Program-made: the position numbers and the translations under genes | Shown: one piece after another, positions 1,331 through 40,640 of the stretch | How the letters are laid out: the number at the start of each line of letters is the position of its first letter | Position numbering within the stretch: the first letter of the stretch is position 1 | NCBI GenBank assembly: GCA_009103225.1 | Contig: RHPI01000330.1 | Location: 81,347 to 124,038, forward strand | Length of the DNA stretch: 42,692 nt | Source: Chlorokybus atmophyticus | Taxonomy: Eukaryota > Plantae > Mesostigma and Chlorokybus algae | Reading direction: 5' to 3' | Notes under the pieces: generated by a model | What the model was told of the DNA's origin: nothing | The model's database searches: none | The model's input: the letters and a program-made list of their open reading frames with translations, nothing else

Positions 1331-1643
1331 ACCAGCCATGGTTCGTAGGTGCGGACCATGGCTGGTGTGCGGCTCTTGTCACAGGCAACTAGGCTTGAAA
1401 AAAAAAAATCGGACCAAGAATGGTCCCTGCAAAGTACCATTCCCGGTCCGATTTACACCGGCTTTCAACCGGCACCAACCCTGGCCCGGTTTTGGGGGAC
1501 CGTGGGACAATTACGTACTGTTTGGACCAGCCCTGGTCCCCGCGTGCAGACCAAGGCGGGCGACCCTGGTCCGGACCCCAAGCCGCCCGGGCGTTTTGGC
1601 CCTGGTCCGTACCGCGGACCAGCCCTGGTCCACGGGAAAAATC
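1331..1643. repeat. Cluster 1 of the ACCA-N4-TGGT palindrome; 1481-1643 is a near-identical direct repeat of 18881-19046
   Basis: Perfect motifs start at 1331, 1355, 1413, 1526 and 1618, plus near-matches. The ~160-bp block ctggcccggtttt...ggaccagccctggtccacgggaaaaatc recurs at 18881. Confidence 0.9.
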
Positions 1644-1931
1644 TATGACTATGACTATGACAGCACAGAGTTGAGAGTCACTGCAGCCGACATCCCCTTG
1701 CCGGTGTGGCCAGAAAAGGGCGATGTCCTGCAGATGCGGCACAACAGCAAGTCCATTTTCGATTTTAGACTTCCGCATGAGCCCCCAGATGAAGATCCTG
1801 CTGACGCACCCCCTTGGGGTGTTGTGGTCAAAGAGGTGCGGTCCGACGGTCATATGGTAGTCGACTACCTGAAAAAGGCAGGGGGGAGGAGGCTAGGCGT
1901 TTGGGTGGTTAACACATCTGCGAGCGACTAG
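1644..1931 (+). pseudogene. Fragment of unknown gene P (paralog of 30780-31080)
   Basis: YDYDSTELRVTAADIPLPVWPEKGDVLQMRH..SIFDFRLP..PPWGVVV..DGHMVVDYLK aligns to AYDFSNPKLRLRAANIPLPVWPETGDVLLVRH..SVFDFRVP..PPWIVIV..EGNMLVDYLK. Homology starts right after the repeat end at 1643. Confidence 0.75.
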
Positions 1932-2390
1932 GTGGAGGACCCTTTCTCAGCCAAAACAAAGCTCGACTGGCCAAGGCAAGGGAGCAGCAGAAGCAGCTTT
2001 GCGTGGACTGAGAGGGGTAGAAGTGATGGACGCGAATGAAATGCAACCAACATCGCATGTATTGAAAGCCAGGACAGCAGGCAGCAAGTGAGTGTGTTTG
2101 CACTTGCATTCACGTGTTTGTGAAGTGTGTGTGTCTGCATCATAGACCAGTTCGGATAACTGCGCCTTGCAGACAACTATGTGCACTGTGCGCGTGTGCA
2201 TGCGACTGCATGTATGATGGCCGAGCAAGCAGGGCAAGCAATGAACATGTAATGGCAATATATTACTGTATACACTTATGCACATCTGTTCTGCAGGCTA
2301 TGTACACTGAATGGATGCCTATAAGCCCAGCCTGCAGCTGGACTATGAGCCCAGCCTACAACCGGAAGTAGGTACCTGGGTGCTACTGAC

Positions 2391-4870
2391 TCAGTCTATA
2401 GGCCATACTAGGGTTGGTGGTGGTGGTGAGTGTCTGCTCAAATAGTAGCCGATCAGGTTTTTATAAATGGCTTTGGTGTAGTGTGGGCTCAGGTGCATAA
2501 CTTGCCGTTGTGCCGCAGTGAGGTGTGTATATGATCTGTTCGCCATGTTCTGATCAAGCAGAAGCAAAAAGTGAGTGAGGCCCGGCTGCAGAGCACCAAA
2601 CGCCTCCAAAGTGTTGGCATACAAAGGGAGCCCATTTTCCGCTAGCTGTTGGTTGCTGTCACGGAGGTCATGGTGCGCTGTGTTTCGGATCAAAACACAC
2701 AGTGCAGCAGGATCACACTGTCCCAAGTGTCTCGTGTCGCTTGATTGTTCCTCTGCGCCCAGGCATTGCGAGCTTGTATGCAGACCGCAAGCTCTGGAGC
2801 CATCAGCTGTTGCCAACCTTGCAAGTACTGTTGTATGCGCTGGGTAGTCTGTGCTCCTCCTTCGCTCAACGAACGTGCCCGCGCGCCGGGACTTTCAGCC
2901 AGGAAGTCCTCCACCACAACCCGCATCCAATTATTAACCAGCACGCGTTCCATGCGAATTTTCTGTTTTTCAACGAGCTCCAAGTCATCTTCTAAGTTCG
3001 TGACCCGCCTGTTAAGTTGATTGTTCTCTCTTTGCTGTTCTCCCTTTGCTGTTCTCCCTTTGCTGTTCAATGATTTTCTCTTGCAGTTCAGCTTCTGGCG
3101 GTAGTGCGGACGTGGAAGGAATGTCAGCAGCTCCACCACCTGGCAGTACAGTCTGCAGCATCTGAAGCGTTTCTTCGAGCCTCTACTGGGTATCTTCTAG
3201 CAGCTTCTCTGTATGACTGACACGCTGCATGGCTTGAGCAACGTTTTCTTTCGATTCTGCAAGGTCCGCCTGCGCCTTCAGGGTTTTCGGGTCGTCCATG
3301 GTGGCTGGTCGCTTGCCGTCTTTGATAAGCTTCTTATTGAACTTCTGGAGTTTGGCATTTTCCTGACGCAGGCGTTTCACCTCTGCATTCAGGGCGTCTG
3401 CTTGCCTGCTTGCATCTGCTTGCAGCTTGCCCCCAGTTCCTTGCGTTTGAGAGGCCAGCCGTTGGAGTTGTTTGTTGAGAGACTCCACTCTTGCTTCGAG
3501 GCGGTTTCTCTCAGCAGTCAAAGATTCAACCTCTGTTTGCAGCTTGCGCCCAGCCTCTTGCGCCTGTTGTGAGGCCTTCCCGAGTTTTTCATTGGGAGAC
3601 TGCACTGCTGCACGGAGCTTCCTCCTGGCCTCCTCGCCTGTGCGCAGGCGCTCGCGCAGGCTCTCATTGTCCTGCCGTAGGCTGCTCGCCTGCAGCTTCT
3701 TCTTGGCCTCCTCGGCTTGGCGCAGGCGCTCACTCAGTTCTGCATTTTCCTTTTGTAGGCGGTCCGCCTCCTTACGCGCCTGCTGAGTGGACGCCTCCTG
3801 CTGCTTCTTTTTGACCTCCTCGGCTTGGCGCAGGCGCTCACTCAGTTCTGCATTTTCTTTTTGTAGGCGGTCCGCCTCCTCACGTGCCTGCCGCTGAAGG
3901 GAGGCCATTTGCTGAAGCTGGATTTGGAGTTGCGAGGCCTCCTCGGCTTTGCGCAGGCGCTCCTGCAGGCTCTGGATCTCCTCCAAGCGTGCTGCTGATC
4001 CTTTGAAGCTGCTCCTCGCCTGCCGTAGGCTCACATTCTCTGTTTCTAAGCGTTGCCTCTCCGCATTGGTCCACCTCAACTGGTGCTAAAGCGTGTCTTC
4101 TTGCTGCTTCCGAATGGAGTCTTGGTGTGACTGCTGACGCTGAAGTCTTGCATGAAGGGCGTCAACCTCTGCTTGGAGCTTTTGTGCTTGCGCGGAGGGC
4201 TGCTGCTGAAGCTGGTAAAGAAGGTTCTGCTGCTTTTTCCTGGCCTCCTCGGCTGTCGCCAACTGCTGTCGTAGGCGGTCCCTGTCAGCAGTGGTGGCAA
4301 CCAACACTTGCGCTGCATCCTCACGATGCAAGGCCAGCACCAACTCTTCATCCAACTCGCTGATCCTGTTAAAGGCGGCCTTGACGTAATCTTCAATGCG
4401 CTTGCAGCGGGTGAGGTGCTCTTTCAAGGCAGGGCGTTCACCGCACAGACGTTCAACTTCTTCCCTCGCCAGCTCTGAACGCCGAGCATTGATTTCTCCC
4501 AGCTCTTGCAACGTTTGTTGTAGCTGTTGTACGCGCTGGCTGTCTTCCGCTCTGGCCTGATCCTGCTGTTGCAGCCTTTGTCGCTCAGCATTGGCTGCAT
4601 CGAAAGCGGCCTGCAGCTGTGGTATGCGCCCCACGGCCTCTTCTCTTTCCTTCTCCTGCTTTGCAAGAGCCACCTCCAGCTCTTGTATGCGCCCCCCGGC
4701 CTCCTCTCTGGCCTTCTACTCCTGTTGCAGCAACTCTGCATGTTGTTGGCTAGCCTTGGCTGCTGCTTCAGCAGCGGTTGATGACTCCGCTGCATGGATG
4801 CGCTTGACATCAGCGCTGGCGGATGCAACGGCCTTAGTGCTTGTAGACGCCTCTTCTAGGTGTTGCTGCA
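2391..4870 (-). pseudogene. Long coiled-coil protein gene (unit A) with in-frame stops
   Basis: ORFs 4086-4673 and 3183-4079 are in the same frame, separated by a TAA. Heptad-like E/Q/R/K/L/A composition with a duplicated motif ARxEADRLQKENAELSERLRQAEE. Further ORF pieces run to 2391. Confidence 0.65.
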
Positions 4871-4964
4871 TCGAAACACCAAGTTAGAGCACGAACACGA
4901 AACAGCGGGGTCATAGACCGAAATGGACAGTGCGGCCTGTGACGCACAAGTAGCCATATACTGA

Positions 4965-5900
4965 CTAATGCTGACTTTGGTTCAGGGTTACCTGAAGTTG
5001 GGGCACTTGCTGTTGGAGGTTTTGGACAAAGCCTTCGACCAACTTGGCTATGTTGCTGGCATTGGCGACTCCTGAACGTGCAGCAGCGATACCGTCTTCC
5101 TTCTTCTTACGAGCGTCGTCGTCACCGTCACCGTTGCTGTCATCATCGCTGCTTTCATGATCGCTGGGTTCATCACCACTGCCGTCTCCATAATGATCAC
5201 CTCCAGCAGGTTCATGATGATCACCTCCAGCAGGTTCATCACGACCTCCAGCAGGTTCATCAACACCAGCAGGTTCATCACCTCCAGCAGGTTTATTACC
5301 GCTGACATGCTGACCCTCAGCAGCACCTTCTGGAGTCCCTCCAGCAGTTTGATGGCCACGGTCTATGGCATTCTTCTCTGCGCTTCCTGGTGGTGGCCTG
5401 TCCGAAAACACTAGAGGAACTGAAGGTCGCCCCAAAACCCCTCCCAATGCTGCAAGTGCCGCAGCAGCAGCGGCAGCAGCAGAGGCAAGAGCAGCATCAA
5501 CAGCAGCTTGAGCAGGATTGCTAGAGGTAGCCGTAGCACCATAAGCAGCACTAGAAGGAGTCGGACCAGGAGCTGCAGCAGGAATGAATGGCCAAGGATG
5601 GTTGCACTCCCACTTGTTGATGAGGTATGCGCGCAAGGACTTGTAATTCTCAGCCCATCCTAGATTCTAAAAATGGATGGTCTTCATCTGCTCTTCCAGC
5701 CAAACTTCTCGCTTCTGTTTCCTCCGATTAGCAATGGCGTTGATGCGTAGCCGGCGTGTCTCCCACTCCGCCTTGTTGCGTTGCTGCAATTGCTTTTGCT
5801 CAGCCTGCCACTGTGCAGTTGTATCTTGGGCGTTTTGAACATTGGTGCGCACGGCAGCTATTTGCTCCTCAGTCAACCAATGTCACCTGCTTTCATTCAG
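4965..5900 (-). pseudogene. Unknown helical/low-complexity protein gene R (unit A)
   Basis: KAEWETRRLR..KREVWLEEQMK and DGIAAARSGV resemble unit B KDWERKIR..RKEWLDELKR and EALAAARDTI. An EPAGG repeat tract lies between them. Confidence 0.45.
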
Positions 5901-6245
5901 ACCATTGCGCACCATGGACAAAATGGTCTTCTCGATTCTTGACTGATAATCCTGCACCTTCAGCCTGTGCTAATTTGCAGCCCGTGTCACCATGGCGCCC
6001 TGAGCGGCAATCTCTTGAAGGCCTTTGCGAATTGTAGTCTCTGCCTTACGGAACACTTCCTTGGTAAGTTTCTGCGAATCATAACCACCAGTTAGAATAA
6101 GAATTACACACAACTCATTTACGTTTAATAACACAAACATACCCTCTGTTCTTTGTCTCGTTCTATTTTGGAGTCTATCTGTCTTAACAGCAGGAATAGT
6201 CTATCTAGCACGCGTGTAAGCTCAGCGCACTTGCTTTCAGCTGAG

Positions 6246-8740
6246 TCAAATATCCCTTTTTACAAAGGCGTACAGACGCCTCTCTAACAGTGTGATTGAC
6301 TGTGTCATTCTGGTGACACAAGTGCAGTCTATGAATGCACAATGACATGTACGACCATATACTGACGAAGCGTTCTCAACACTTACATTCTGTCTTTGAT
6401 TTCGGGCGACTTGTGGTCGTTTCAGCACCCTCCATGTGTAGGCGCCTAAAGATTCACCAGCTTGACGCGGTGCAGTGCAAGCGGCGAGGTACGCGCCGTC
6501 TTCGAGCGCGACGCCATGGCGAGCTGCCATCTCTGTTGCCTCCTTGATAAACTTTTCTCTAGCCGCCTCGAAAAAGTACTCCATGACCTGAGGTAAGATG
6601 GTGATCAGCATATTGTTTGCAATGCTGAATGATAAGGTCATAGACCGCACAGCTCTCACAGATGCAGTCCATAACAGCAAGCGACAGTGTCTGGCAGAGC
6701 AAGTGATGTCTATAGGCATGAGCCACAGGCTGCATATACTCACATTGTTTGTAGGTTGCTCGTTTGGAGGTGGCGGGAAGGGATCGTATTCCATGAGCAG
6801 CTCTTCCCCGGCGGCAATGTCACTCTGACTCCTAACCTTAGCTGCGGTGTAGGCAGGCCTGCACCGCAGCCTCATCAACGGAGTCCATGATGTGGCAGTT
6901 GGGTTTGTACTGCGTATCGCGGCTGGAGTTGAGGAAGCCAGCTATGTTCCCATATCGAGGGTGGCCATCGATGACAGGGCTCTGGCGGCGTGGCACGTCC
7001 CTGATGACCTGCAGGTGGTATCGCTGGTGGTGCAGGTGCTCCTTCTGAGGGAATGTCTTCTGCATCTCCCGGTAGGAGTACCACTTGCCGTCAAAGACCA
7101 TGATGCGATCACCCTTCTTAATAGGCTGGCAGGTGAACAAGCCGAGCCCTGCGCCAGGGATATTAGAAGGCTTGATGACGAACTCTTTGCCAGCAAAATG
7201 GAAGAGTTCGCCTATGGGACTTGGACCATTCGTCCACAGCTGCCATTGGTCACCGGTCGCTCTATGTATGCGCTTGCGGTTGGGAAGCTCTTTGTCACTC
7301 TGCAAACAACAAGTGACGGTAAGTTGCTGTGGATTGTCATAGGCTGCAACTGAGCAGTGCATGCAGCATGGCGCCCATGGCATGTGATCAGCATGCATGA
7401 TACCATGCGAACAAAGACGCACCCGCAGATGTTCTTCTGATGGCGGTGGCAACTCCACAGCGTCCATCCCCGTCTTGGTGAATCGATTGACCTCGGCTGC
7501 AGCATTGGTCACAGCCAGTTCACGGGCCTGCGCTGATCGGTGTTGCCTTGGCGTAGTAGCCTGTGGGGCATCGCCTACAGGTTGGTTCACCCTGCCACCC
7601 TGTGTGTAAGACAATGGTAAGGATATCATATACATTTATTGACTCACAGACTGTCTCGGCCTATGACATAAGACAACGCGCACATGTCCTGATCAGAGCA
7701 GTCTATGAGTATTCGCATGGATACTCACAGGTGTTTGGGGAGTTTTGGGAGAGCCGGCTGCCGATGACGTTCCTATTTTCATGCCTCGCCAGCTGGCATG
7801 CCTCGGTTTCTTTGCAGGTGGCACCACCTCTTCCTCCTCAGACTGCTCCAATTCCAACACCTCCTCCGCAGCCTTCTGCGCTGACTCCTTCGACCCCTCC
7901 TGCATCACATCCTCTGGCTCCCTCCGCAGCAAAGTCGAACTCGGTTTCCTCCGCTGTTGACGCTTCTGCCGCTGAACCTGCAGCGGCAACACCTGAACCT
8001 TGCTGCCGCTGCCGCTTTGTCCGCTTTGGTGTGGTTTGCTCCTTCGGGTAGAGGGGGATGTTGTTGTAATCGTGCTCAGCGTCATCCCAGAATTTCTTGT
8101 TCTGTGTAACAAGCGACAAGGTTAGCAACCAAGGCGTTGTAATGGCATTTTTTTCGCTAACAGTTGCATGCTGCATGTGCTTACAAATGCAAAGGCTCCA
8201 GTGTGATGCTTTCGCAGATACTTCTCGGTAACTCTCCGCACGTTGTCGACGGAAACTCTGCTCTGTTTTGGATGTTTCGGGGCCTGCACGCCAACATATG
8301 CTTCACGTAAGTCAATTTTGTTGCATAGTCTTTTGCCCAGATATCAGTTCACTAGCATGCATACAACGTCTATGAGTCTACAAGTCTATAAGAACAAACG
8401 CACTTTCACAACATCACACGCACCCGTACTGCTTTGGACAGAGAATCCCCCATCCGTCCCTTCAGCTCGTCTGCTGTCTCCCTGCCGCCCTGGTTGGTTC
8501 GTCTGCGCATGTACTTGCAATATCTGATGTGCAGGTGCTGCGCGATCTTTGCAGTCTTGGTGTGTGTAGTTTTTGGAAGCCCGTTCGACTTTAATGGCCC
8601 GCCTTCACGTTTGTTCTGGAGTAGGGACAGTGCCAATAGAAAGTCCGCTAGTGTGAAGGCTGCCTCCGAGTCTCCTCTGAAGTCGACGATGCCGCCGACA
8701 CGGTTAGGATGTCATCATCCATGGTGTTTCTCAGCTTGCT
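6246..8740 (-). pseudogene. SET-domain (lysine methyltransferase-like) gene, unit A; SET core about 6783-7182, frameshift near 6860
   Basis: FVIKPSNIPGAGLGLFTCQPIKKGD...DG...GNIAGFLNSS...PNC, then in another frame DIAAGEELLMEYD. Flanking segments (KIAQH..NQGGRE; PRQAGES.AY) match unit B. Confidence 0.8.
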
Positions 8741-9780
8741 GATCTCTGCAACAACTTGCACTGGATAACACCCTTGTGCAACACAAGCCAGCACTCCGCT
8801 ACCACACCTCCGCCAGCACCGCCAGAACTACCTTAGGCACACCAAACATCAGGCTGCCGGCGGCGTGACAGGCGACCGCATAGGCCGCTCCGACGAACCC
8901 TAGGTCACAGGTACTGGAAGTTGATTCATTTGGAAGTGTTTGTTGTCATATTCCGTCATTTGGAAGTTTTGTTCGCTCGCGCGTGCGTTGTGCGTTGTGC
9001 GCAGTATAGACTTCGGCACTGGTTATCGCAGCTGCAATAAGTCGCGTGCTGTAGACTCTCGTGCTATAGACTGCTATGTGAGCCTATTGTCACCTGGAAG
9101 CTTAGGCGCTTTGTGCATAGTGTAACAATGGTGACCGCAGTGCCTTCTGCCAGCCAAGTGTTCAACTGTGGCAACAACGGCCAGAAAACTGGGGACAGGT
9201 TCATGAGGGACAACTTTTCCTCTGTGCACCCCACCCATGTGCGAAACATGGACAAGTTCACCAACAAGCTCAAACAGTGGGAGCAAATCCCTGGTCCAGG
9301 TTGGAAGGAGGTGAATTTCGACAAGTGGAGCAAGGATCATGCAGCGCAGGCCAGCATTGCCAAGCTGGAGAGGTTCTGTGAGGAGTTAGAGCCGGAGTGT
9401 TGAGATGGACGATGAGAAGCCTATACATACACATGTGTGCACGCCAACAGCAACACCAACATGAGGAAACCATGCACTACAGGACCTTAGCACATGCACA
9501 TGCTACATCGTGACTAGCGACTCTACACCAACAAGAGTGTTTCAGAGTGTACAAGTCCGGGCTTTTATACCCGCCAGCTACACATGCTTCTACTCTGGAA
9601 GCTACTGCGTCTAGCACACTCAACCTTAACCTGCGCTCTAAGTTGCTCCACGTAGCTAACTACAAGAGCTTTCTAACATGCCGCCATACGTGCCATATGG
9701 CCAAGTAACCACCGAGCTATCATCATTCTTCTAACCACGCCTGAGTCTTCCAGATTCATGTCCGCGCCGCGCCTGGAACC

Positions 9781-10211
9781 TGTTGAGAGTCATTCCTACA
9801 TACGATCAGCATCGACCCTCCACACAGGAGTAGAAGGTCGTAAGGATGAGCACTAGGTCCGGACTTAGCAAGATAGCGTCGTCGGACCAGACTCCGGACT
9901 CCAGACTGGAGCCTTACTAACTGCTTCGTATCTCCGCGTATACTTACTCATATTAGGCGTGTAAGAGCTTGTTGGAAAGCTCTGGTTGTAAGAAAGACAA
10001 CACCGCTTAGAGCGCGTCAAAAGGCTGAGTATAGCTTACGCAGTGCTTGCAAACGTAGACGTGTGTGTAACTGGCTGGTATAAGAACCAGCGGACAACTT
10101 GTAATAGATGAATGTGATGTGACTTGCGTATGCTCTGGTGGCGGTAGCTCTGTCTTTGTGTGTCTTTGTGTATGCTTGCCTCAGCTACATGTGCATGCTA
10201 GTTCTTCAATA
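9781..10211 (+). repeat. 5' LTR of copia-1 (431 bp, ends CAATA instead of CAACA)
   Basis: TG start, direct repeat of 15161-15585, followed immediately by the PBS. Confidence 0.95.
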
Positions 10212-10224
10212 GGTTATGGGCCCA
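10212..10224 (+). promoter_or_regulatory. Primer-binding site GGTTATGGGCCCA (half-tRNAiMet type); second copy at 11102-11114
   Basis: Directly abuts the LTR end. Same sequence as the internal-tRNAiMet PBS known from Drosophila copia. Confidence 0.85.
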
Positions 10225-10339
10225 CACTACGCTTGAGGAGTGTGAGACTAGCTTGTGTGCATGGTAGTTCTACACTACGGTAGCTTGTTGGTAGCAAAGC
10301 CTTGGGTGTCAACTGCGAGTGAAGGCAGGCACGACAAAG

Positions 10340-10956
10340 ATGGAGGCGACCTACGACAAGGGGCAGATTGCAAAGCTGGACACCGACAACTACAACACAT
10401 AGTGCGTGGAGATGAAGGCCTTGCTCATCCATAAGAAGGTGTGGAAGTTTGTTGATCCGAAGGCACCACCACCACCACCAGGAGCGAACACTGTGTGGTC
10501 AGAGCATTCAGCAGAAGCACACTCTTTGCTTGTGTTGAACTGCAAACCGCATCACTTTCCCATGCTCATTGCATGTGAAGATGGTAGACAAGTTTGGGAA
10601 AAGCTATCAGCCGTTTTCAGAGCCAAGAACAACGCCAGAAAGTTGCAGCTACGCAAGCAACTGAGCGCACTCAGGAAGGAGGCAGCAGAACCCATCACAA
10701 AGTATGTTGCACGCGCGAGAGAGCTGTGGGCGGACCTTATCAACGTCGGCCACGACATGGGGGAGACGGAGGTTGTGCTGGCTGCTGTTGCAGGGCTACC
10801 AGCAGAGTACGAGGTCGTTGCAACACTGCTGGAGACATCGTCATTGGAGCTGACGCTGGACGATGTACTACCGAAGCTGCTCACCGTGGAGCAGAGGGTG
10901 ATGAAGAAGGACGAGCAAGCTGATGCCGTGGCCTTCTACACCAACAAGCACGGGAA
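10340..10956 (+). pseudogene. gag: Truncated, diverged gag copy
   Basis: MEATYDKGQIAKLDTDNYNT*CVEMKALL... has TAG at 10400 where the sister copies have TGG, and breaks into LTR sequence at 10957. Confidence 0.9.
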
Positions 10957-11101
10957 GTGTGTGTAACTGGCTGGTATAAGACCCAGCGGACAACTTGTAA
11001 TAGATGAATGTGATGTGACTTGTGTATGCTCTGGTGGCGGTAGCTCTGTTTCTGTGTGTCTATGCTTGCCTCAACTACATGTGCATGCTAGTCCTTCAAC
11101 A
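10957..11101 (+). repeat. Internal partial LTR (last 145 bp) followed by a second PBS
   Basis: gtgtgtgtaactggctggtataag...gtccttcaaca followed by ggttatgggccca. Confidence 0.92.
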
Positions 11102-11229
11102 GGTTATGGGCCCACACTACGCTTGAGGAGTGTGAGTCTAGTTTGTGTGCATAGTGGTTCTACACTACGGTAGCTTGTTGGTAGCAGAGCCTTGGGTGTC
11201 AACTGCGAGTGAAGGCAGGCACGACAAAG

Positions 11230-14200
11230 ATGGAGGCGACCTACGACAAGGGGCAGATTGCAAAGCTGGACACCGACAACTACAACACATGGTGCGTGGA
11301 GATGAAGGCCTTGCTCATCCACAAGAAGGTGTGGAAGTACGTTGATCCGAAGGCACCACCACCAACACCAGGAGCGAACACTGTGTGGTCAGAGCATTCA
11401 GCAGAAGCACACTCTTTGCTTGTGTTGAACAGCAAACCGCATCACTTTCCCATGCTCACTGCATGTGAAGATGGTAGACAAGCTTGGGAAAAGCTATCAG
11501 CCGTTTTCAGAGCTAAGAACAATGCCAGAAAGTTGCATCTACGCAAGCAGCTCAGCGCACTCAGGAAGGAGGCAGCGGAACCCATCACCAAGTATGTTGC
11601 GCGCGCGAGAGAGCTGTGGGCGGACCTCATCAACGTCGGCCACAACATGGGGGAGACGGAGGTAGTGCTGGCCATTGTTGCAGGGCTACCAGCAGAGAAC
11701 GAGGTCGTCGCAACCCTGCTGGAGACGTCATCGTCGAAGTTGACATTGGACGATGTGCTACCGAAGCTGCTCACCGTGGAGCAGAGGGTTGTGATAAAGG
11801 ACGAGCAAGCGGATGCCGTCGCCTTCTACACCGGCAAGCATGCAAAGAAGAGCAACCATGAAAAGAAGTACAAGGGCAACAAGCCAGGCAATCCTCGTCA
11901 CAAAGACCTCACATGCCACTGGTGTGGTTGGAAGGGGCACATTGTAAAGGACTGTAGGAAGAAACAACAGGGGCAACTTAGAGCAAGCACCAGCAACAGC
12001 GGCAACGAGCACCAACACAAGGAGAAACATGTCGCCTTCACTGCATCCAGTTCGAGGGCGAGCACAGCTTTCTGGGTGGTGGACTCTGGCTGCGATCGTC
12101 ATCTCACAACAAACAAGGAGATGATGGAGGGCTACAGGAAGCTGACGTCTGCAATCAAGGTGGCGGGCTTCGGTGGCGAAGTACTGATGGCTGAGGGAGT
12201 TGGCAACGTACGACTCCAGTGCAAGGTTGGTAACACACTACGCGAGGTATTGTTACGCAACGTCCTGCATGTTCCTAAGGCTATTGCGAGTCTATTCTCT
12301 GTGAGGGTTGCGGAGCGCTTAGGCGCGGAGATCCTATTTCGGAAGGGTGGCTGCTCAATCATCCTTGATGGGGTCGTGCACATGGTTAGAATCGCTGATC
12401 CGGGAGGGCTCTACCACGTGAAGCACCCTCAGGACATTGACATTCAAGCCATGATGGTGAAGGACAAGGAGTCGCCAACATTGTGGCATCGAAGGTTCGG
12501 GCATCTCAGCTACGTCAACCTCACTCGCCTTGTTGCTGAGAAGATGGTCAAGGGCATCCATCTCAGCACTGAAGAACTCAAGAATGCATCAGGTGCACTT
12601 TGTGAACCATGCCTGGTTGCAAAGCAGCATGCTATGCCATTCTCATCATCCTCTTCAAGCAGTCAGCATCCTTGCGAGCTTGTGCACATGGATGTCTGTG
12701 GCCTTATGCGCATTGTGGCGAAGGGAGGAATCAGGTACTTCGCTACATTCCTCGACGACTGCAGCAAGCTATCCGTCATCTTTCCATTGACACTGAAGTC
12801 AAAAGTTGCTGGAGCTGTGCGCACAGTTGTGGCCTTGTTGGAGACCCAGTCTGGCAACAAGATGAAGGCAATGAGGAGTGATCGAGGAGGGGAGTACATC
12901 AACAAGGAGTTGAAGGAGTTCTTCGCCAGCAAGGGCATACGCCACGAGACAACCGCACCCTACACCCCGCAGCAGAATGGAGCAGCTGAACGCCTCAACA
13001 GGACACTCATGGAGCGTGTTCGAGCCATGCTCAACGACACAAAGATGGATGATAGTCTGTGGAAGGAGGCGGTACTCACTGCCAAGTACATCCGCAACAG
13101 GTCTCCGGTGAGCTCAGAGCAGAAGACTCCGTGGGAGCACTTCTATGGAGCCACACCAGATGTGAGTGATATACGTGTGTTTGGATGCACGGCATATGCA
13201 CTAGTGCCTAAACAGCTCAGGCACAAGCTGGAGCCGGTCAGCAAGAAGGGCATCTTCGTTGGCTATGAACCGGGTTCCAAGGCTTATAGGATCTTGCTCG
13301 AGGACACTCAGAAGATCATTGTAAGCAGAGAGGTGGTTTTTCACGAGGGATTATCACAACCAGAAGCAGGCTTCTTTCCTGAAGATGAAGCACAGCCGGA
13401 GCATCCTGAAACAGTGGAGGCTACAGGCAAGGCCATCATCAACAACAAGGGTGAGCAGGACTCAGCTGTAGCAGGCCAAGAGGAGCCGTACCAACAGCAG
13501 GAGCACGCAGCTCGGAGATACCCAGTGAGGGAGAGAAAGACACCTGACTTCTTATACAAGGCACACGTCGCCAGTATGCACAATGAGGAGCTAAGCACCT
13601 ACGAGGAGGCATTGTTAGCACCAGATGCGGAGCAATGGCAGCGTGCTATGGACGAGGAGATTGCGTCACTCCATGGCAACAACACTTGGTCACTGGAGCA
13701 GATTCCGCCAGGAGTAAAGACCATTCCAGTGAAATGGGTCTTCAAGGTGAAGCGTGATGGTCACGGCAACATTGAGCGCTACAAGGCAAGATCGGTGGCA
13801 AAGGGGTTCTTGCAGCAGGAAGGTGTGGACTTTAACGAAGTGTTTGCACCTGCAAGTAAGCATACCACCTTCCGTGCACTGCTAGCTATGGTTGCTGCTG
13901 AAGACCTAGAGCTGCATCACCTGGATGTGAAGACTGCCTTCCTCTACGGAGAGCTGGAGGAGGAGATCTTCATCGAGCAACCACCTGGATATGAAGAAGG
14001 GGAGAGAGGCACAGCGTGCAAGCTGATCAAGGCACTGTACGGGCTGCGACAGGCACCGCGTATGTGGCACATCAAGCTCACCAAGGAGCTGGAGGCACTT
14101 GGCTTCACCGCATCCTCTGCAGACCCTGGGCTCTTCATCCATGCAGACAACAAGGTCTGGCTGCTCGTGTATGTTGATGATATCATCATCACCGCCAGGC

Positions 14201-15118
14201 AGGTGCACCACCTGCAAGAGAAGAAACTTGCTCTACAGCAAGCATTCTCAGTTCGTGATCTTGGAGAGGCCAAGTGGTTCCTTGGCATGGTGATTGAGCG
14301 CGACAGGGCGGCTCGCACAATCAAGATCAGTCAGGAGCAGATGGTGAGAAGACTCGTCACCAAGTTTGGGCTCACTGAAGCGAAGACCAAGACCACACCG
14401 TTGGCACTTGGCACTGCCCTCATCAAGGCAAAGGATGAGGAGGTACTCGACAAGGCTCAGTATTCATATGGTGAGCTGGTAGGCAGCATGCTCTATCTGG
14501 CAGTGTGCACACGTCCCGATGTTGCACATGCTGTGGGAGTACTTGCTCGCTACATGTCTGCACCGAGCATGGAGCACTGGAGAGCAGCAAAGGGAGTACT
14601 ACGCTATGTTGCTGGGAGCGCAACAGTTGGCATCAAGTTTGGGAGCGGGAGCACTAAGTTGGAGGGCTACTGCGACTCGGATCTTGCTGATGACCAACAG
14701 CAGGAGGTCCACTACAGGCTACGTCTTCAAGCTGAACGGAGGCATGGTGAGCTGGAACAGCAGGCTGCAGCCAACAACAGCAGCATTTACATCAGAGGCT
14801 GAGTACATGGCAGCGGCAGCAGCAGTGAAGGAGGCACTCTGGCTTCGCAAGCTCATGGCAGACTTGGAGCACCCCATGGCGTGCATCGTCATCAACTGTG
14901 ACAACCAAGGAGCCATCAAGTTGTTGAAGCACCCTATCGCCTCGGCAAGGACGAAGCACATTGATGTCATGCATCACTTTGTGCGTGACAGAGTCACAAG
15001 GAAGGAGGTGGAGTTCCAGTACTGCAACACTGAGGGCATGCTGGCGGACTTCATGACAAAGCCATTGTCACCGCTCAAGTTCAAGACTTGTTGCGCAGGA
15101 CTTGGCATCTGTGTTTGA
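11230..15118 (+). pseudogene. gag-pol: copia-1 gag-pol, frameshifted in RNase H at about 14695
   Basis: CHWCGWKGHIVKDC knuckle, VVDSGC protease, LWHRRFGH, integrase D..D..E (HMDVCG, RSDRGGEY, NGAAER), RT YVDD. Relative to copia-2, gacctcaac is gaccaac (2-bp loss). Confidence 0.93.
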
Positions 15119-15160
15119 CTACAGGAGCAAGCGTTGGAGGTCAAGCTGCTCGCGTGGGAG

Positions 15161-15585
15161 TGTTGAGAGTCATTCCTACATACGATCAGCATCGACCCTC
15201 CACACAGGAGTAGAAGGTCGTAAGGATGAGCACTAGGTCCGGACTTAGCAAGATAGCGTCGTCGGACCAGACTCCGGACTCCAGACTGGAGCCTTACTAA
15301 CTGCTTCGTATCTCCGCGTATACTTACTCATATTAGGCGTGTAAGAGCTTGTTGAAAAGCTCTGGTTGTAAGGAAGACAACACCGCTTAGAGCGCGTCAA
15401 AAGGCTGAGTACAGCTTACGCAGTGGTTGCAAACGTAGACGTGTGTGTAACTGGCTGGTATAAGAACCAGTGGACAAGTTGTAATAGATGAATGTGATGT
15501 GACTTGTGTATGCTCTGGTGGCGGTAGCTCTGTTTCTGTGTGTCTATGCTTGCCTCAACTACATGTGCATGCTAGTCCTTCAACA
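15161..15585 (+). repeat. 3' LTR of copia-1 (425 bp)
   Basis: TG..CA termini, preceded by the short purine tract gtgggag and followed by TSD GAACC. Confidence 0.96.
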
Positions 15586-28475: not shown

Positions 28476-28602
28476 TTCTGTCGAGCCTGCCTTTCTTGCA
28501 GTTGACACCCAAGGCTCTGCTACCAACAAGCTACCGTAGTGCAGAACTACTATGCACACAAGCTAGTCTCACACTCCTCAAGCGTAGTGTGGGCCCATAA
28601 CC

Positions 28603-31517: not shown

Positions 31518-33250
31518 TCAACCAGCATCAGGAGGAGGAGGTGGAGGACGAGGAGGACCAGCAGCAGCACCAACAGCAGGAGGAGGAGGAGGAGGAGGAG
31601 GAGGTCTTGGTATGGAGCACTGAGCGCGGTAGCTGCTGAGGGCTGATACACCTGCGGGGGTTTGCAACCACGCCCATGCAGCGGCATAGTCCATTGGACG
31701 CTGTAGCTGATACAATGGCGCTGCCGCTGGTCCTCGAAATGAAGCCATCCCTTCGTCAAGGTCACGGAGGTGGTGCACAAACGTTGATAGCATGACAACC
31801 ATTACGTCAAACATGGAAATTAGGGTAGCGCACCTTGTGATTTCGGGTTCCTGCAAGATGCCAGTGTAGTGCGACTCGGCGTTCCTGTAGAAGTCCCAGA
31901 ACCCACTGGCACCTTGTTGAAAGCCAGTGAATAGAATGGCACTCCGTTGTGATTGCTGCCACGCCTGCCTGATTGCAGCTGCACTCCGTATGAAGATACC
32001 CGGCCGTTCGACTGGGTCCTCCCGAAATCTTTGTGGCCAATCGTCAAAGAGCTGAGTGTTTGGCAAACGGCCCAACACTATTGTACGTTCGTAGTTTCGC
32101 AGTGCAAAAAATTGGTTGGAGACCTCACGCGCCCACTCCCTGTTTTTGCCGATGAGGTACTGCGCACGATCCTGCGCTACCTGCTGGAGCTGTGCTCTGT
32201 GATGAGCCACCTGCCTGTCCAGCTGTTCTTTGAGGTCTCTCACCTGCTTGTCTAAAGCTTCTGCACCTGCTAGCGCTTCATTCAGCTTTTCGTCAACGCA
32301 TGGGTCGACAGCCCCTCCGACAGCCTCTGATGTTGAAGGCACTGCAGCCAGCCTCTGCTCCAACTCTTGATAGCGGGTTTGCGCCTCTGCCAGCTGCCGC
32401 TCTGCTTCATTGGCTCTTCTTGTCGCGGCATCGACAGCCGCTGCATCGACAGCCCCTCCAACGGCCTCTGATGCTGACTGCCTCGCCGCTTGCTGTGCTA
32501 CCTCCTGCTCCAGCTGGCGAATGCGCTGCCGAGAACTCTCCATCTCTTCCCCAATCTTGGCGCCCGCAGAGGAGCTAGAGGCCATTGCCAGCATGCGCGA
32601 TTGCAAATCAAAGTTTCGCAATTCGAGGTAGCGAATCTGGGCGTCAATTGATGCCGCACGCTCCTTGGCGGCTTCGAGTGCTATAGCCAACCATTTGCAG
32701 TTTGGCGACCTCAGCATCGGTGGTTGCAGCCCTCTGCTGCAACTCCTCCCTCTCCTTGCGCAGGGCGTCCACCTGAGAGTTGGAAGCGGCAGCCCTCTGC
32801 TGCAACTCCGCCAATTCTTTTGGTAGCTTGGCGACCTCAGAGTTGGCTGCAGCCCTCTGCTCCGCATGCTCCAAATCCTTGCGCACATTGTTGACCTCAG
32901 CATCGGTTAATGCAGCCCTTTGCTCCGTCTCCTCCAAATCATTGCGCAGCTTGGCAATAACAGCATCTGATGCCCCAGCCCTCTGCTCCGACTCCTGGAA
33001 CCTCTTGCGCAGCTCGGCTAAGAGTAGGTTGAACTCATCGTTTGTTCTTGATGCTGTCTTCATCGTCTCCTCCAACTCCTTGCGCACCCGGGCGACCTCA
33101 GCGTTGGCATCTGCAGCCCTCTATTGCGTCTCCTGTAACTCCTCGTGAAGGATTGCAACCTGTTGCTGCGACTCCGCTACTTTAAGGTCAAGAGTACGCT
33201 GGTAATACTGCTTGCGCGCTTCGTTCTCACACTGACTAGGCTGGTCTGCA
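31518..33250 (-). pseudogene. Long coiled-coil protein gene (unit B) with a stop and a frameshift
   Basis: Repeated EQRAA..xAEV motifs in 32644-33148, continuing in ORF 31518-32903, which ends in a Pro-rich tail. Same position and strand as 2391-4870. Confidence 0.65.
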
Positions 33251-33352
33251 GGTTGTCACGAGTTGCAAGAACGCGCTCTTGTCCTTGCTGTCGCACATAG
33301 ACATCAAGTAAGTACAGAGGCCACAACAANGTACAGAGGCCACAACAGATTA

Positions 33353-34420
33353 TCAAAGCCCCCCCCCCTCTTCTTCCACAAAGACTGTACGCGATGCAAT
33401 TATTCTCACCAATGCTTGTCTTGTAAGCCCGAGGGCGAATGACAGCTGTTCTGCAGAAATCTCCACAGCGTTTGCCACTTCCTCGCTCAATTTCGATGCG
33501 TCATTGACGGCCTTGCGGTGCTCCTCGTGGGCCTTCTTGAAACCTTCAATTGTATCACGCGCTGCTGCTAAAGCCTCCTCTCCAGCTTGTGGCCGCACAG
33601 CTGGTGGAGTTTGCCGTGCAGGAGTGTCCGGCTAAAGGGGACGTTTCTTCTCAGCTGGGGGTGTAGACATGGGGGCACTTGTTCTCTCTCTCTTTCTCTT
33701 GGCAGATGGACGAGGACTGTCATGGAGACTGTCGTGAGGTGGACTGTGGTGAGGTGGACTGTCGGCTGGTGGACTGTCCGCGCGACTGTCATAAGGTGGA
33801 CTGTCCTTGGGACTGTGGGGAGGTGGAGTGTCAGGTGGAGGATTTTCACGCTCAGCTTGTCTCTCCAGCCAGGTCTTCAGTGGTGGAGGTGCGGGGTGCA
33901 AGGGCACTCTCAACTGATGGAGATGATCGTCGTGTGAATGGGGAGTATTAGGGTTGTTGATCGCCACCAACAAAGATGCTGCAGCTTGTGCCTCCGCCCG
34001 TGTGTTAGCTTCGCTCTGCTCTTTTACAAGTGTACGCACAATGTCCCGCTTGAGTTCGTCAAGCCATTCCTTTCTGGACTCCTTGAAGCCCTTCTGGAGC
34101 ATACCCCGGATCTTTCTCTCCCAATCCTTTTCCCAGTCCTCTCCCTTCAGTGCCAATGCTGTCGCCTGCCTGATGAGAGCCCCCTCTCTGGTAGCAATAG
34201 CTGCTGTCTGAGTTTTGTGCATCTCGGCAGTCTTTCCCTGGAGACCAGCGACCTTTTCCTGCAAAAACAGGTAACAGTTTAAGCAAATGTGTGAAGTGAA
34301 AGGTGCACCACATGCTGACGTACCCTGATCACGTTCTCTTGTTCTATTCGTAGGTCTAACTCCCTAATGACTTGTGTTAAGGCGTCGACTTGTCTGTTTG
34401 CGGCCTCTTTCATTTCGTAG
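33353..34420 (-). pseudogene. Unknown gene R (unit B) with a DSPP-repeat tract
   Basis: ORFs 33632-34264 and 33353-33598. The DSPP repeats are encoded by GACAGTC motifs. Weak homology to 4965-5900. Confidence 0.45.
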
Positions 34421-34619
34421 GCAGCATCATAAACCGCTTTACAGAAATGAACAGATATTTGACGCTGAATATGGGCTTTAGAATCTATCTGTTGACACAT
34501 GCACGGGATCTTGGTTGTTAGCATACATGTCACAGTGCATGCAAGTGCACTGCGACAGGAATGCAAACAGCAGACTGTCGATAAGACTGTCGGATAGACT
34601 GTCATTCTTGGAAGACTGT

Positions 34620-36740
34620 CAGTACAACTCACCATTCTTGTCTTTGCGTCCGCACTGGCATGCTGAAGACACGCTGGACTAAACGCATGGAATATGCGAA
34701 GTCACTCTCGCCCAGCTGCCTTGGTGGCTTGCTGGTAAGCAACCACATAGCGTCCTCCGTGGTCAACTTCCAACTTCTCGCAAGCCTCTACGCCGCATCC
34801 TCCGTTTGCCACAGTTGGGTCTGCCAGCAAAGAAGGCAAGTTAGTTTCCAGTGTCACAGTTGTGGAGTCATTGACAGTCTCGCATTGACAGTCGCATTAA
34901 CAAGGCATGCAAACTGGGCATGCAGCAATGCAATCACACTTACTTGGTCTGTCTGCCCATCTGGTGGCGCAGGGAAAGGGGTGTAGTCTAAGAGTAGCTC
35001 CTCCCCTGCCTTGATGTCCCTAGTCGCATACACAGTGACAGCTGGGTGGCCGACGTCATCGAAGTCCGAGTAGAACATGACGTTGGGCTGAGTGTGCCCA
35101 TGTGCGAATTGATATAAGCCGCTACACAGCCAGTGCGGGGGTGCCCGTCGATGACAACCTGAGATTGGCTTGGTGTATCTGGTGGAAACAGGTTGACGTG
35201 ATATCGCCGGTGGTGTCGGATGTCGCTGATTTGTTGGTAACGATGCAAGACCTCCTCCATCTCATGTTGCTTAAACCATTTGCCATCATATGGCAACAGG
35301 TAAGCCTCTGCACAGATGCGCACAAGTCATGAGTGATCCGCGAGTACACAGAGAGACATGCACACAAAGATACACACGCACACACGTGCACGTACCGTTT
35401 GGAATGTCTTCGCAGGCAAACAGTCCCAGTCCAGCACCAGTGATGGTTGAGTCTTTGATCAACCAGTTGTGCGTAAGATACTTGAACTGCTCGTTGACTG
35501 GGATGCGTGTGGATGCTCTTGCATCCTCCACAATATCCAGTCTCCACAGCTGGTGCTTGTCTCCAGCGCTACGATGGATGAGCTTGAGGTTTGGTATCTC
35601 CCGGTCAGTCTGTTTAATGCAGTGATAAGTAACCATCAGACTCTAGCGCAAAGACAAACACAGACCATTACATTGGCATAGGCTGTCATGATATGTTCTC
35701 ACCCTCAAGTAGTCAGCAGAAAGTTTGGGTGGCGCTTTAGAATCTGTTGAAGGGTAGCGTTTCACTTGGAATTTGTTCATCTCTTCAAGAGCACTGGCGA
35801 ATTCCGCTGCATAATCCACCGCTGCGGCTTAGCGACGCCTTGAGGGTTTCCGCTTCGGTGGACTAGGTATCGCACCCTCCTCGTCCTTGTCCTCGTCCTC
35901 GTCCTCATCCTGTGGTTCTCCTGCTACTCCTGCTCCTCTTGATCTTCCTGCTCCTCGAGATCGTGTTGCTCTGCGTGTCCAGGTATGCATAGCCGCCAGC
36001 TGTTGCATTTCTTCGTACAGTTCTTTGGTCTGAAACGTGGCAGGGTTAGTACGCATGTTGCAGTATGGGTTCATTGCTGCTGTGCGAATTCAGCAACTCG
36101 CATACCCTGGAATAGCCTTGATGTCTGCCATCTTGCAGTGCTTCAAGTTTGGGACTATGGGATTGGGGTAAGGGGGCAGTTGCTCATCCTGCAGCACGCC
36201 GCTGCTGGTGAGTTGCATTGTGCGTTCATACATGTCACGAAACTTCAAGTAGTCCAAGAACACGACGGTTGCACTCATATTACAACCGATATGCGCAGTA
36301 TTCAAGCAACGGCTGTCGAGTATCTGCACCATGCGCCAATGCGCTGTACGCACGCGCAAGGCACAGATCATTGACAGTCCAGGCAGGATGTTGCAAAAAC
36401 TTGGATCAAGAATGCCTGAGGGTTCCTACCCTGATGGATTGCTGGATTTCCTCTGCCAACTTTTCGAGTGTAGCCTTGTCCTCCCTCCCTCCCTTATTGC
36501 TGAGCACGCGCATCATTCGGCACAGAGCACCGTTCCAGTGCTGTGCGTTTTTCGTGGGCTTGGTCTCTCCCATACCAGGTTGGCCGTTTGCATAACGGTG
36601 ACCAGCATGCACGTTGTTCATACAGTAAAGGCAGCCCCATATAAACTGCGGCGCTGTGGACGACCTCCTTCGAGCCATGGTGTACTGCCTGGGACTGTCC
36701 ACTGTGCCAAGAGACTGTCGACGCCTACCCAACAGCACCC
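34620..36740 (-). pseudogene. SET-domain gene, unit B; SET core about 34980-35465, intron 35308-35395, frameshift near 35090
   Basis: LIKDSTITGAGLGLFACEDIPN, then EAYLLPYDG...VVIDGHPRTGCVAAYINSH, then in another frame PNVMFY..VTVYATRDIKAGEELLLDY. The GT-AG intron restores the frame. Confidence 0.82.
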
Positions 36741-37014
36741 TGAAACAAACCTTTCACCCCCAATCTTCGCTCAACAACAACAACAACCATGCCAAAGGTC
36801 TTGCAACGCTTGTGTACGCCGCCAACCCACAGACAGCCGCTGATCATGGTGCTGACAGCCGTCAATTCCTAGGCGAGTTCAACCCTAACTTACCGACAGC
36901 CGCGTCGCTCTCTTGGCGAGTTGCATTGTTGCGCTACTTGTGCGGCTTGTGTGGCTTGTGCGAACTCACAACGCTTGTGCGGCTTGTGCGGTTGTTTATG
37001 TAAGGCACTGGTCC

Positions 37015-37345: not shown

Positions 37346-37413
37346 GCCCCAAGTGTGAAGTCAAACTGTTTGCTCTAAGTTCAGTTGTTTGTTCAGGCAG
37401 TCTAACTGACACC

Positions 37414-39630
37414 ATGTCCACTGGGGAGGCAAGACAAATGCCCGCTGCAGCTGATTGCTTCAGAGCAAAGGGGAACCACTTGCTGGGCCAAGTGACGGGC
37501 TCGCAGTTTCTGATGAAACCAGAGTTCAAGCATATGCGCACAACGCATATCAACAACCTGGCGAAGCTGAAAAAGAGATGCTGAGCAAGTGGCCACCACT
37601 TCAAGGCATGAAAGGCACAGACTTCAAGCAGAACGCCCAGCACCGGCATGAGCTGGACGATGTCTGCGAGACTGTATTGCAGGCGTCAGAGCAACTGGTC
37701 TTTGAGACAGACCACACCCTGAAATGGACCAAAGGCAAGCTGCTAGTAGAGTTGAGCTGTGTTGAAGCAAGCCTTCCAAGCAGCATGGCACTTACTCCTC
37801 GGTTTTATCATGTCTCCTTTTTTGTCTTGCCATTGACAGTCCTAGCCCTGCATATCATTCATGCTTTCAGTTCTCGGTTGCTCACTAACCAGTTGCGTTA
37901 TGCTATGTTCCAAGATGTGACCTCCTTGCTGATGGCTACCAAAGGACTGTCGCTGCCATGTCTCATCTGCTTGTGTTTCTGCAGCACAAATCAAGAGTCA
38001 TGTTCTCCAGCTACAGTATTCTGTTGGCGCGAAGTGCGGTAGTGATTACGGGCAAAGCATGGAAGAACGCAATGCTATTAAGAAGCAAAGGCGATCCAGC
38101 GACAGGGAAGCTACCCAAGGCAGCCGCGCTACTGAAGCTGCTGCTGGCTGGGGCATGACTTTTTCGATTGGCAGGGACTTGAGGGCCAACCAGCAGGTGG
38201 TCATGCTTGCACCTTTGACTGCTGAGCCTCTAACAGATGCTCAGTACCGGGCCACTTGGCTGAAAGAGAGGTAACTATTGTGCTGTCGGCTGTCGATCAA
38301 GTTCTACAGTCCTCACTGGTTTGCTTAGCTGTGCCTCCATGGCTGCGTATTGGATTCACATATGCTGCCTGCTAACTCAGAATTTCCTAACAGGGGTGCG
38401 GACGGGTTCGCTGAAGATCAGGTGTTTGACATTGCCAACAACGCAGTAGTTGTTGGCGTCGCCACCATCAAGTCCGTATGCGAGCCAGAACAACCAATGC
38501 GGACGTACAATGTCGGTGTTACCCACTGGATGCCAGTGAGAAGCGAGGATGGCAACCTTGGCATTCGCCTACCTGTGAAAGAGAGGCATTTTCTCTATGG
38601 CCAGCTGGCAAGCAGCTGCCATGGTGGGCGTACTCTGGAGGTACATTGCTTGCTGTGGATATGCTCCTGCTGTGACTGTATGGTGCATGAGTGCAAGAAC
38701 ATTTCTGTGTTAAACAACATGCAGGGCAGGGAGATGGAGTGGCCCATGATGTTCTTGGCCGGCGGAGGCATCTGTCCATGTGAGGCATGCGGCAACGACG
38801 ATCGCATTGTGGTGCCGGGTTGCATCAAGGACATACTGCCTACGACCGCAGCTCGGCACAGCACAGACACAGAGGTCAGTAAGGGCTGTTGTCAGCGCAT
38901 GGCATGACTCATTGGCACGCGTTTGCTCGCACACTCACAGTAGCACACATACCATCTCTTGCAACATCACGCACAGTGTCCAACTATCTGTTGCTCACTG
39001 CCTCTCACAGACACGGACACACACACACACACACACCATGCTTGTATGGCGTTATGTTATACCGCGCGCTCGTGGTCCTCACAGTCACTTGACAGTCGCA
39101 GGCTGTCCCATATGGACAGTCGCCAATGCACTCTATTGACGGATGTATGACATGTGCAGGCTGCTGGAGCCATCTCCGACTGTGAAGATCAAGCAGTTGC
39201 AATGGACTTGGATTTTGCAGCTGCAATTGTTTGCGACACCAAACCAAACGCCCCCACTAGAGAGCAGGCGATGGACGTGTACGAGTACTACCAGCACATT
39301 GAGCACGCGGTATTCACCAGTCGTCACCAGCTGCCATTCAAGGATCCTGAGCGAATGGAGTCTTATCGAGACGAGAGTATCTTGCGAGCAGTTGTCAGCT
39401 TTGCAGCAAAGAAAAAGTGGTTGGTGGCCAACGATGAGGTTGAAGGAGGGTGCGAGTGGCGATATGAATCTCGCAAACTACCAGGTATGCATATTGAACT
39501 GCAAGTCATTACACAGTCCTTTGGTAGTTGTCGAGGCGACTACACATTGCAGAGCTGTTGAGCGAGGGAAGGAAGAAAAAGCCATGGCAACCCAAGAAGC
39601 AGTGGATGCGACAGCCCTCGTCATCCTAGG
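37414..39630 (+). pseudogene. Unknown multi-exon gene Q (unit B)
   Basis: GQVTGSQF..THINNLAK, RATWLKER followed by GT, DQVFDI..ATI..RTY..WMPV, EWPMMF..GICPCEAC and LPFKDPERM..AVVSFAAKKKW all match gene Q-A. Confidence 0.65.
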
Positions 39631-40083
39631 TGGGTGGTTTATTGTGCTACAGTTGCATGTGTGTGTCAACACTGTATGTCTTGTGTAAGCACAGGTAGAC
39701 TCACAGTTGTTTTGCAGACATTTGATGCACGAGTTGGCTGCAGGGGCTGTTTACAGAGGCTGTCAAACAAGGGTGTCCCTGGCTCCAAAGGCTGTCGTTG
39801 GCTCCTGAGGCTGGGAGTCAGCACACAATGTGGAAAGATGGGAGTGGCTTCACATGGGGTCCAGCTGCCCAGGCGAAGGTGCAACACAACAAAGCTGTTG
39901 TCAGCTGCGACTGTCAACAGCAGCGTGCAGTGCATGTAGGAGACTGTAGGTATAGTACATGACGCTAGCTTAATACTGATGATCATGATCAGACTGTCCT
40001 TTGACAGTCCATTCCAGCATTTTTGTGAATTGTATGCATGGCGGATTGTATGCACTAGGCATGGTGCATGAAACAGCACGCAC

Positions 40084-40640
40084 ACCATGCATGGCTTCCA
40101 TGCATGCGACATTATGACAGACCATGATTGGTGCACCAAATAAAGGTAGACCGCACCATGTATGGTGCGGTGCCTGGCAGGACCATACGTGGTGCCGCTT
40201 GTGGACCATGTATGCGCAACACCTTGTCGGTAGCCATGGACCATTCATGGTGCGACTGTCGACCAGACTGGCACCATATGTGGTCCACTGTGCAAGGAGG
40301 GCAGCGCACCATGATTGGTCCAGGCAATCTCAGTAACAAACATGACTTGCGGTCCGTATCCATGGACCATGTATGGTGCGACTATCAGGCACCGGACATG
40401 AAGCAAGCAACAAACCATGGATGGTCCGCTGTTCCAGGGGGCATCGCACCATGCATGGTGCATAAATCTCATGCATACTGGCCACCATGCCTAGTGCGTC
40501 CCAAGGGACAATGGTACCATTCACGTGAAATTCGGACCATGCATGGTCCGACTGTCCATGAAAGCCGGACCATACATGGTCCGTCAATTTCACTTAGCAG
40601 GGGAAAATCCCGGTCCTGCGTCACGGACCACTCATGGTCC
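40084..40640. repeat. Cluster 3 of ACCA-N4-TGGT (right end of unit B)
   Basis: About 12 perfect copies (spacers tgat, tgta, tacg, ttca, tatg, tgat, tgta, tgga, tgca, tgca, taca, ctca) plus near-matches. Confidence 0.9.

Follow-up and report, generated by a model that had tools for sequence, protein, structure and literature searches.

The 42,692-nucleotide (nt) stretch of Chlorokybus atmophyticus contig RHPI01000330.1 analyzed here, hereafter the window, is eukaryotic DNA rich in introns and in nested elements. It carries two collinear gene units, A and B, both candidate DNA-transposon remnants, in which R (+), a coiled-coil gene (-), a SET-domain gene (-), P (-), and Q (+) are followed by a cluster of the spaced palindrome ACCA-N4-TGGT. 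The proteins of the two units share approximately 25-46% amino-acid identity, whereas their DNA cannot be aligned, in agreement with the initial annotation of this locus. That annotation also placed the second and third clusters directly downstream of Q, which holds, and the Q genes at the two positions are homologous. The remnants measure ~10.7 kb for B and ~11.1 kb for A without its long terminal repeat (LTR) insertion. The features are as follows, with X1 denoting one of two public sequencing runs described below.

1329..1642, + strand: cluster 1, five perfect sites; putative right end of a third element, A0 (92% match to cluster 2, same orientation)
1643..1652, + strand: probable filler DNA at the deletion junction joining the A0 end to truncated unit A; CTATGA, a word of the adjoining R, recurs in it
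1653..2013, + strand: gene R of unit A (R-A), 3' remnant only; likely transposase C-terminal part (43.5% over 131 amino acids to R-B)
2391..6176, - strand: coiled-coil gene of unit A, collinear with unit B
6380..7635, - strand: SET-domain gene of unit A (PF00856, E=4e-5, above the Pfam cut-off)
8406..8711, - strand: gene P exon of unit A, possibly belonging to the SET gene as its 5' portion (32% to P-B; no known family)
9128..9397, + strand: probable first coding exon of Q-A, severed by LTR insertions (X1 contigs join 9397 to 15724)
9398..15718, + strand: nested LTR/copia insertions in Q-A, foreign to the element (5-bp duplication CGGAG at 9393-9397 and 15719-15723)
15724..17808, + strand: gene Q of unit A, remaining exons, frameshifted (25-45% to Q-B; no known family)
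18499..19034, + strand: cluster 2, ten perfect sites; subterminal array at the right end of unit A
19046..19053, + strand: right terminus of unit A, TCCGTG(TG), ending at 19051 or 19053 (signature and contig boundary)
29931..31241, + strand: gene R of unit B (R-B), broken 3' part, likely transposase C-terminus; start uncertain, merging into an upstream Ty3 relic
31518..34701, - strand: coiled-coil gene of unit B, collinear with unit A
34628..35864, - strand: SET-domain gene of unit B (PF00856, E=9e-6; 28-33% to SET-A)
36090..36753, - strand: gene P of unit B (homology to P-A)
37455..39484, + strand: gene Q of unit B (homology to Q-A)
40119..40640, + strand: cluster 3, twelve perfect sites; subterminal array at the right end of unit B
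40652..40659, + strand: putative right terminus of unit B, TCCGTG(TG), with spacing to the last palindrome identical to that in A (signature)

The palindrome and its arrays

Exact matches to ACCA-N4-TGGT number 30 in the window, against a mean of 0.98 and a maximum of 4 in 100 dinucleotide shuffles, consistent with the earlier estimate of less than one chance occurrence for eight fixed bases. The earlier count of about 27 perfect copies in three groups is borne out, with 5 sites in cluster 1 (1331-1629), 10 in cluster 2 (18501-19032), and 12 in cluster 3 (40121-40638). The three isolated sites lie at 12606 and 27088, one in each of two copia copies, and at 35436. Cluster 3 had been given a start of 40084; the array stands, but this position is a one-mismatch site and the first perfect site is at 40121, with near-perfect sites extending the cluster back to 40052. 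Spacers of 0-3 and 5-11 nt yielded 0-2 matches apiece, enrichment being restricted to 4 nt.

Pooling of 54 half-sites extends the motif to a two-fold symmetric 16-bp sequence, GSACCA-N4-TGGTSC, with G at position -2 in 46/54 and G or C at position -1 in 51/54, which is longer than the eight fixed bases originally described. The spacer, described as freely varying, is indeed variable (20 distinct 4-mers among the 27 clustered sites) but not free, and its bias differs by family: cluster 3 has T as the first base in 19 of 24 half-sites, and clusters 1-2 have G there in 15 of 30. No description of the motif appeared in the literature listings searched.

Fixed spacer length, free spacer sequence, and independent half-sites together have the look of a dimer-binding site, and the binder is putatively a dimeric, element-encoded protein. 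Decayed satellite or hairpin DNA, the latter a terminator or RNA structure downstream of Q, would require no binding protein, and we consider this explanation highly improbable. ACCA-N4-TGGT is able to fold as a tetraloop stem, but covariation is absent at the five outer and two inner positions of the 27 sites; the variable outer base is Watson-Crick paired in 13 of 27 sites versus 13.6 after shuffling, and G-G and C-C combinations occur in 8 and 3 sites, respectively. Favoring a satellite are local duplications of 126-170 nt inside cluster 3 and the existence of satellites bearing this very motif, since 19 of 119 metagenome loci retrieved with a two-site pattern have at least four sites per 600 bp. 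However, 16 of those 19 loci use only one or two spacers, versus 6 distinct spacers of 10 in cluster 2 and 8 of 12 in cluster 3. Tandem Repeats Finder returned 40 rows, all outside the clusters, which lack the head-to-tail tandem units of satellite DNA, and the same word is retained in A and B while neighboring DNA is unalignable. The simple-satellite alternative raised by the initial annotation thus fits poorly, and clusters 2 and 3 share an end signature.

The two-palindrome pattern was found in at least 120 stretches of metagenome contigs, with no homology to the genes or arrays of the window among the 119 metagenome loci listed or among 12 viral loci. Alignments of R and Q against viral contigs gave no locus. 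A separate palindrome family was seen in this material, in which locus L052 (7750-8100) and 27 similar loci among L013-L131 carry a dense GGGACCAC-NN-GTGGTCCC array around a TTTCCCGTGTGAAA-like core. This family is unrelated, high-GC, and bacterial, with ParA/ParB-like frames recognized by eye in L074, and the L052-type array is suggestive of an origin or partition site of a plasmid.

Right ends of units A, B, and A0

Clusters 2 and 3 share a terminal signature, in which the last palindrome plus CC is followed by 11 nt and TCCGTGTG, placing TCCGTG (5'-CACGGA on the opposite strand) 13 nt past the outermost site in both units. Only two matches to this signature occur in the window, at 19021 and 40627. 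As a check on this match, 720 pairings of A-type with B flanks were compared; 3 reached at least 8 identical bases at one offset, and the two of these other than the signature owe their identity to neighboring palindromes. The full signature gave 8 scattered single matches in 596 Gb of prokaryote genomes, which are read as chance. The shared end signature is a new observation and provides a precise searchable tag for these elements.

Contigs of two public runs (X1 and X2) were aligned to 16380-21200. Contig depth, which is not a copy number and comes from runs possibly related to the window's own sample, is ~21 (X1) and 13-18 (X2) across most of Q-A, rises to 40-57 (X1) and 23-35 (X2) over the last 300 bp (18795-19116), and drops to 0-5 from 19117 onward. 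Depth over 1653-9397 is similar to that over Q-A, and long pieces are ~97-98% identical to the window. X1 pieces in the flank of unit A (depth 2.5-3.1) show no differences, indicating that the organism or a very close relative is present in that run. Among 12 of the 49 loose-end rows, X2 contigs break off behind 19051, 19057, and 19053, the last position with two contigs whose flanks differ; after CCGTG, A and B continue with TG and one X2 contig with CG. Because flanks differ behind 19051-19057 and depth is well above that of the flank in two runs, unit A is a dispersed multi-copy family with a sharp right boundary. The proposal that the arrays are subterminal regions of a DNA transposon is supported by the CCGTG terminus that clusters 2 and 3 share at a fixed distance. 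The initial annotation had suggested flank alignment as a route to sharp termini and target-site duplications; a right terminus was obtained, with contigs stopping at the end of A, but a duplication is not readable.

Cluster 1 departs from the earlier picture of three arrays bracketing units A and B. Positions 1481-1642 are a direct copy of 18881-19045 with 92% identity, so cluster 1 is a right end in the same orientation and not the left end of A. The 11-nt spacer after its last site is present, followed by CTATGA repeats in place of TCCGTG. Contigs over R-A run upstream of 1653 with different sequence in X1 and X2 (316 and 117 nt), and loose letters upstream of 1653 read on into the R frame as in R-B (12 of 96 loose-end rows). 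The DNA upstream of cluster 1 (700-1139) sits on a separate contig of lower depth (7). Since R continues upstream otherwise in both runs, cluster 1 would belong to a third element. This element, A0, appears to represent a third family sharing the last ~165 bp of A and joined to A by a filler-repaired deletion, which would also have removed the last bases of A0, the left end of A, and most of its gene R. The shared ends would allow the enzymes of A to move A0. The A0 interior (1080-1240) contains short inverted repeats of its own, along with several GSACCA half-sites that are not part of complete palindromes. Further left, 140-700 resembles intronic DNA and includes a small frame near 146-260 that looks like an exon; an X1 contig (depth 7) reaches ~560 nt left of 700, and 140-700 may be a gene of A0.

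Retroelements surround these units. Retrotransposon relics lie beyond the right ends: weak Pfam hits indicate a protease-like frame past A and one of gag type past B, and reverse transcriptase and RNase H follow further along in the relic after A. In that Ty3 relic, between the protease and reverse-transcriptase remnants, 22376-22828 (+) resembles by eye the C-terminus of a Dnmt3-type cytosine methyltransferase, and the frame had no Pfam or NCBIfam match. Gypsy-Dnmt3 elements occur in Klebsormidium according to the consulted part of PMC5890265. Such a frame would point tentatively to a host among the streptophyte algae. A young copia family is represented by a near-full copy at 9781-15586 that has a duplicated 5' part and lies nested within another LTR element, by an intact copy at 24122-29026 (-) encoding 1324 amino acids between 99%-identical LTRs, and by a third LTR beginning at the window end (42608-42692).

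Element identity and candidate binding proteins

Taken together, A, B, and A0 are probably damaged large cut-and-paste elements of EnSpm/CACTA type, in which the arrays inside the right ends likely bind a dimeric element-encoded protein; we place the probability of this interpretation at roughly 0.72. Several observations weigh against it. Neither a left end nor an inverted partner was found in the window (1-1330 and 29300-30000 searched, with nothing above shuffles), and the absence of a left flank leaves target-site duplication unreadable. The end signature was noticed by eye before being tested. The boundary of A is based on 12 of 49 loose-end rows and is blurred by a few bases, with loose ends at 19051-19057 and one X1 piece extending to 19058, and read and contig evidence is confined to unit A. 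R is present only as a 3' remnant lacking the catalytic DDE region, and it has no match in Pfam, NCBIfam, PDB, or a phmmer search of 1.84 billion representatives. Feature scores of 0.93-0.95 in a cluster atlas relate R-B to fungal clusters, one with 17% DUF6830, but this lead has low recognition (1560) and DUF6830 occurs in just 17% of that one cluster. Profile (Pfam, NCBIfam), PDB, fold, and atlas searches of Q and P revealed no DNA-binding domain. One left-end candidate, CACGGGATTGA at 29623, was rejected, with p=0.41, no duplication, and no array.

We take DUF6830 to be a Plavaka C-terminal domain, for which no supporting paper was found, and the R tail presumably resembles Plavaka transposase tails, as judged by eye. 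Evidence for R as a transposase tail is thin. Among the window proteins, Pfam gave no Tnp2/TnpA match and no Harbinger transposase or Myb/SANT match; the SET domain exceeds the Pfam cut-off in both A and B. Exon-wise searches of Q and P in Pfam, NCBIfam, PDB, and the atlas detected no known family. The same searches returned no ParB, 2-oxoglutarate (2OG) oxygenase, or DNA-methylase match, although the published Plavaka domains needed HHpred. Homology between exon 9128..9397 and the first exon of Q-B is not significant. Word-index searches with R, SET-A, and the Q C-terminus, run against longer proteins only, returned nothing, which is weak evidence, and a DUF6830 search over 8 prokaryote genomes gave no match anywhere. 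Structure models are poor, with a predicted local distance difference test score (pLDDT) of 33 for R and 49 for the Q C-terminus, and a fold search on these models gave no match at E<=0.001. Three ideas were dropped: a winged helix in Q, proposed by eye, after profile and fold searches; an ASCH/PUA domain in Q, likewise proposed by eye, after profiles compared against 5 ASCH proteins gave a probability below 1%; and a Myb-like P, also proposed by eye, after a domain search.

Repeats of other kinds accompany these genes. Tandem repeats are present in a Q-A intron at 16077-16361 (57-bp x5) and between P-B and Q-B at 37015-37347 (149-bp x2.2). In introns and spacers of unit B (30419-30465, 31261-31324, 34516-34569, and 39900-40010), short inverted repeats recurrently include GACAGTC/GACTGTC, which may be a second binding word specific to this family.

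In the proposed cut-and-paste mechanism, a dimer of an element-encoded protein would occupy the subterminal array in the manner of TnpA at the ends of En/Spm. With its constant distance from the CAC end, the outermost site would place the DDE transposase (R) for cleavage, and the sites further in would assist in bringing both ends together, again as for TnpA. The SET gene would be cargo and may modify element chromatin. The accessory protein Q is a tentative first choice as the binder, at somewhat below even odds, followed closely by the lost N-terminal part of R as another possible candidate. The product of P or the coiled-coil gene is an unlikely binder, and a host factor is less likely still.

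The arrays could also serve regulation instead of transposition, with Q or P binding them and recruiting the SET enzyme so that the element escapes silencing or is tuned, in the manner of VANDAL/VANC and as proposed for Plavaka PAG3. The array adjoins Q in both units with the SET gene traveling along, a red-algal Plavaka offers a precedent in the sections consulted of 10.1101/2025.02.11.637652, and inter-site spacing is irregular (24-113 nt) without visible helical phasing. The exact distance of the outermost site from the terminus in A, B, and A0 points instead to a role at the cut site, and Q and P lack the ParB, oxygenase, and methylase matches noted above. As a replacement for a transposition role, regulation alone is rather unlikely; both roles could coexist.

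Comparison with known transposon systems

Subterminal arrays in CACTA-type elements have long been known in general. According to the accessible sections of PMC12730594, EnSpm termini read 5'-CAC..GTG-3' and are accompanied by 3-bp duplications, CA..TG being common to the CMCT clade. Target-site duplications of 2-3 bp and a DDE transposase bearing C(2)C and H(3-4)H motifs are further traits of EnSpm/CACTA elements in this clade. The right ends of A and B finish in CCGTG (a contig boundary for A) and carry subterminal arrays of a short motif, on account of which EnSpm/CMCT membership is likely. Table S1 of PMC12730594, in the portion available, holds five word-start CACGG matches, two of which begin ESTA-3_PCor and EnSpm-22_AB. 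Fungal Plavaka termini, given in the same source as TGT..ACA or CATCA..TGATG, differ from the CCGTG ends found here.

Another class with CAC-like ends (Chapaev, Transib, ESTA, or an undescribed lineage), or one-ended elements without an inverted left end, is improbable. Such a class would fit the absence of a left end from all three elements and the lack of detectable homologues of R, P, and Q, and ESTA elements too may start with CACGG (PMC12730594, available portion). Visible damage, however, explains the missing left ends, through the filler-DNA junction in A and the Ty3 relic abutting B. The nearest atlas clusters of the R tail are fungal, one carrying DUF6830, a domain presumably associated with Plavaka, and this also argues against another class. 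A more specific proposal, an undescribed lineage of giant CAC-ended transposons with RAG-signal-like bipartite ends and an array read by Q, which would bring along its own histone methyltransferase (SET) as an anti-silencing kit, is unlikely. Its end layout would comprise a CAC(A)CGG end, a fixed-length spacer, and a palindromic box repeated inward as an array, with Q as a new DNA-binding family, and is likewise doubtful.

The EnSpm/CACTA interpretation has parallels in maize En/Spm, soybean Tgmt*, and fungal EnSpm/ESTA elements, whose consulted descriptions share the CAC..GTG end and many subterminal motifs at the right end. In the available text of PMC2613891, En/Spm TNPA binds subterminal repeats, and the repeats of soybean Tgmt* are lopsided, with 4 on the left and 24 on the right. 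Plant CACTA motifs, as far as the sources consulted describe them, are 12-20-mers that lack symmetry, occur in both direct and inverted orientation, and diverge quickly from family to family. Here, by contrast, each unit is itself palindromic with a 4-nt spacer and an exact 11-nt spacer to the end, and the palindrome is kept across families ~25-46% identical in protein. HarbingerS, a SET-encoding Harbinger in the descriptions consulted, is likewise a SET-bearing DNA transposon. CACGG is unlike the ends and target sites of Harbinger elements.

The closest known system, the giant Plavaka (EnSpm superfamily) of the red alga Bostrychia moritziana, in the consulted sections of 10.1101/2025.02.11.637652, carries a SET gene and inverted-repeat arrays beside an accessory gene. 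It resembles the present elements in large size, several accessory genes including SET (PF00856 in both units here), arrays next to an accessory gene, and mostly degenerate copies. It differs in that PAG3 there, beside the array, is ParB-like with a 2OG-oxygenase and PAG2 has an adenine methylase, none of these being detected in Q or P; the methylase of that cassette is of the N6-adenine type and fused to SET. The proteins of this multi-family group match nothing in the libraries searched, and the end signature makes the group searchable. The 16-bp palindrome, kept across such divergent families, offers a clean candidate protein-DNA pair, which bears on the idea, proposed for the red-algal Plavaka in the part of that work consulted, that giant EnSpm/Plavaka elements encode accessory proteins that would bind the ends of the element itself and recruit SET.

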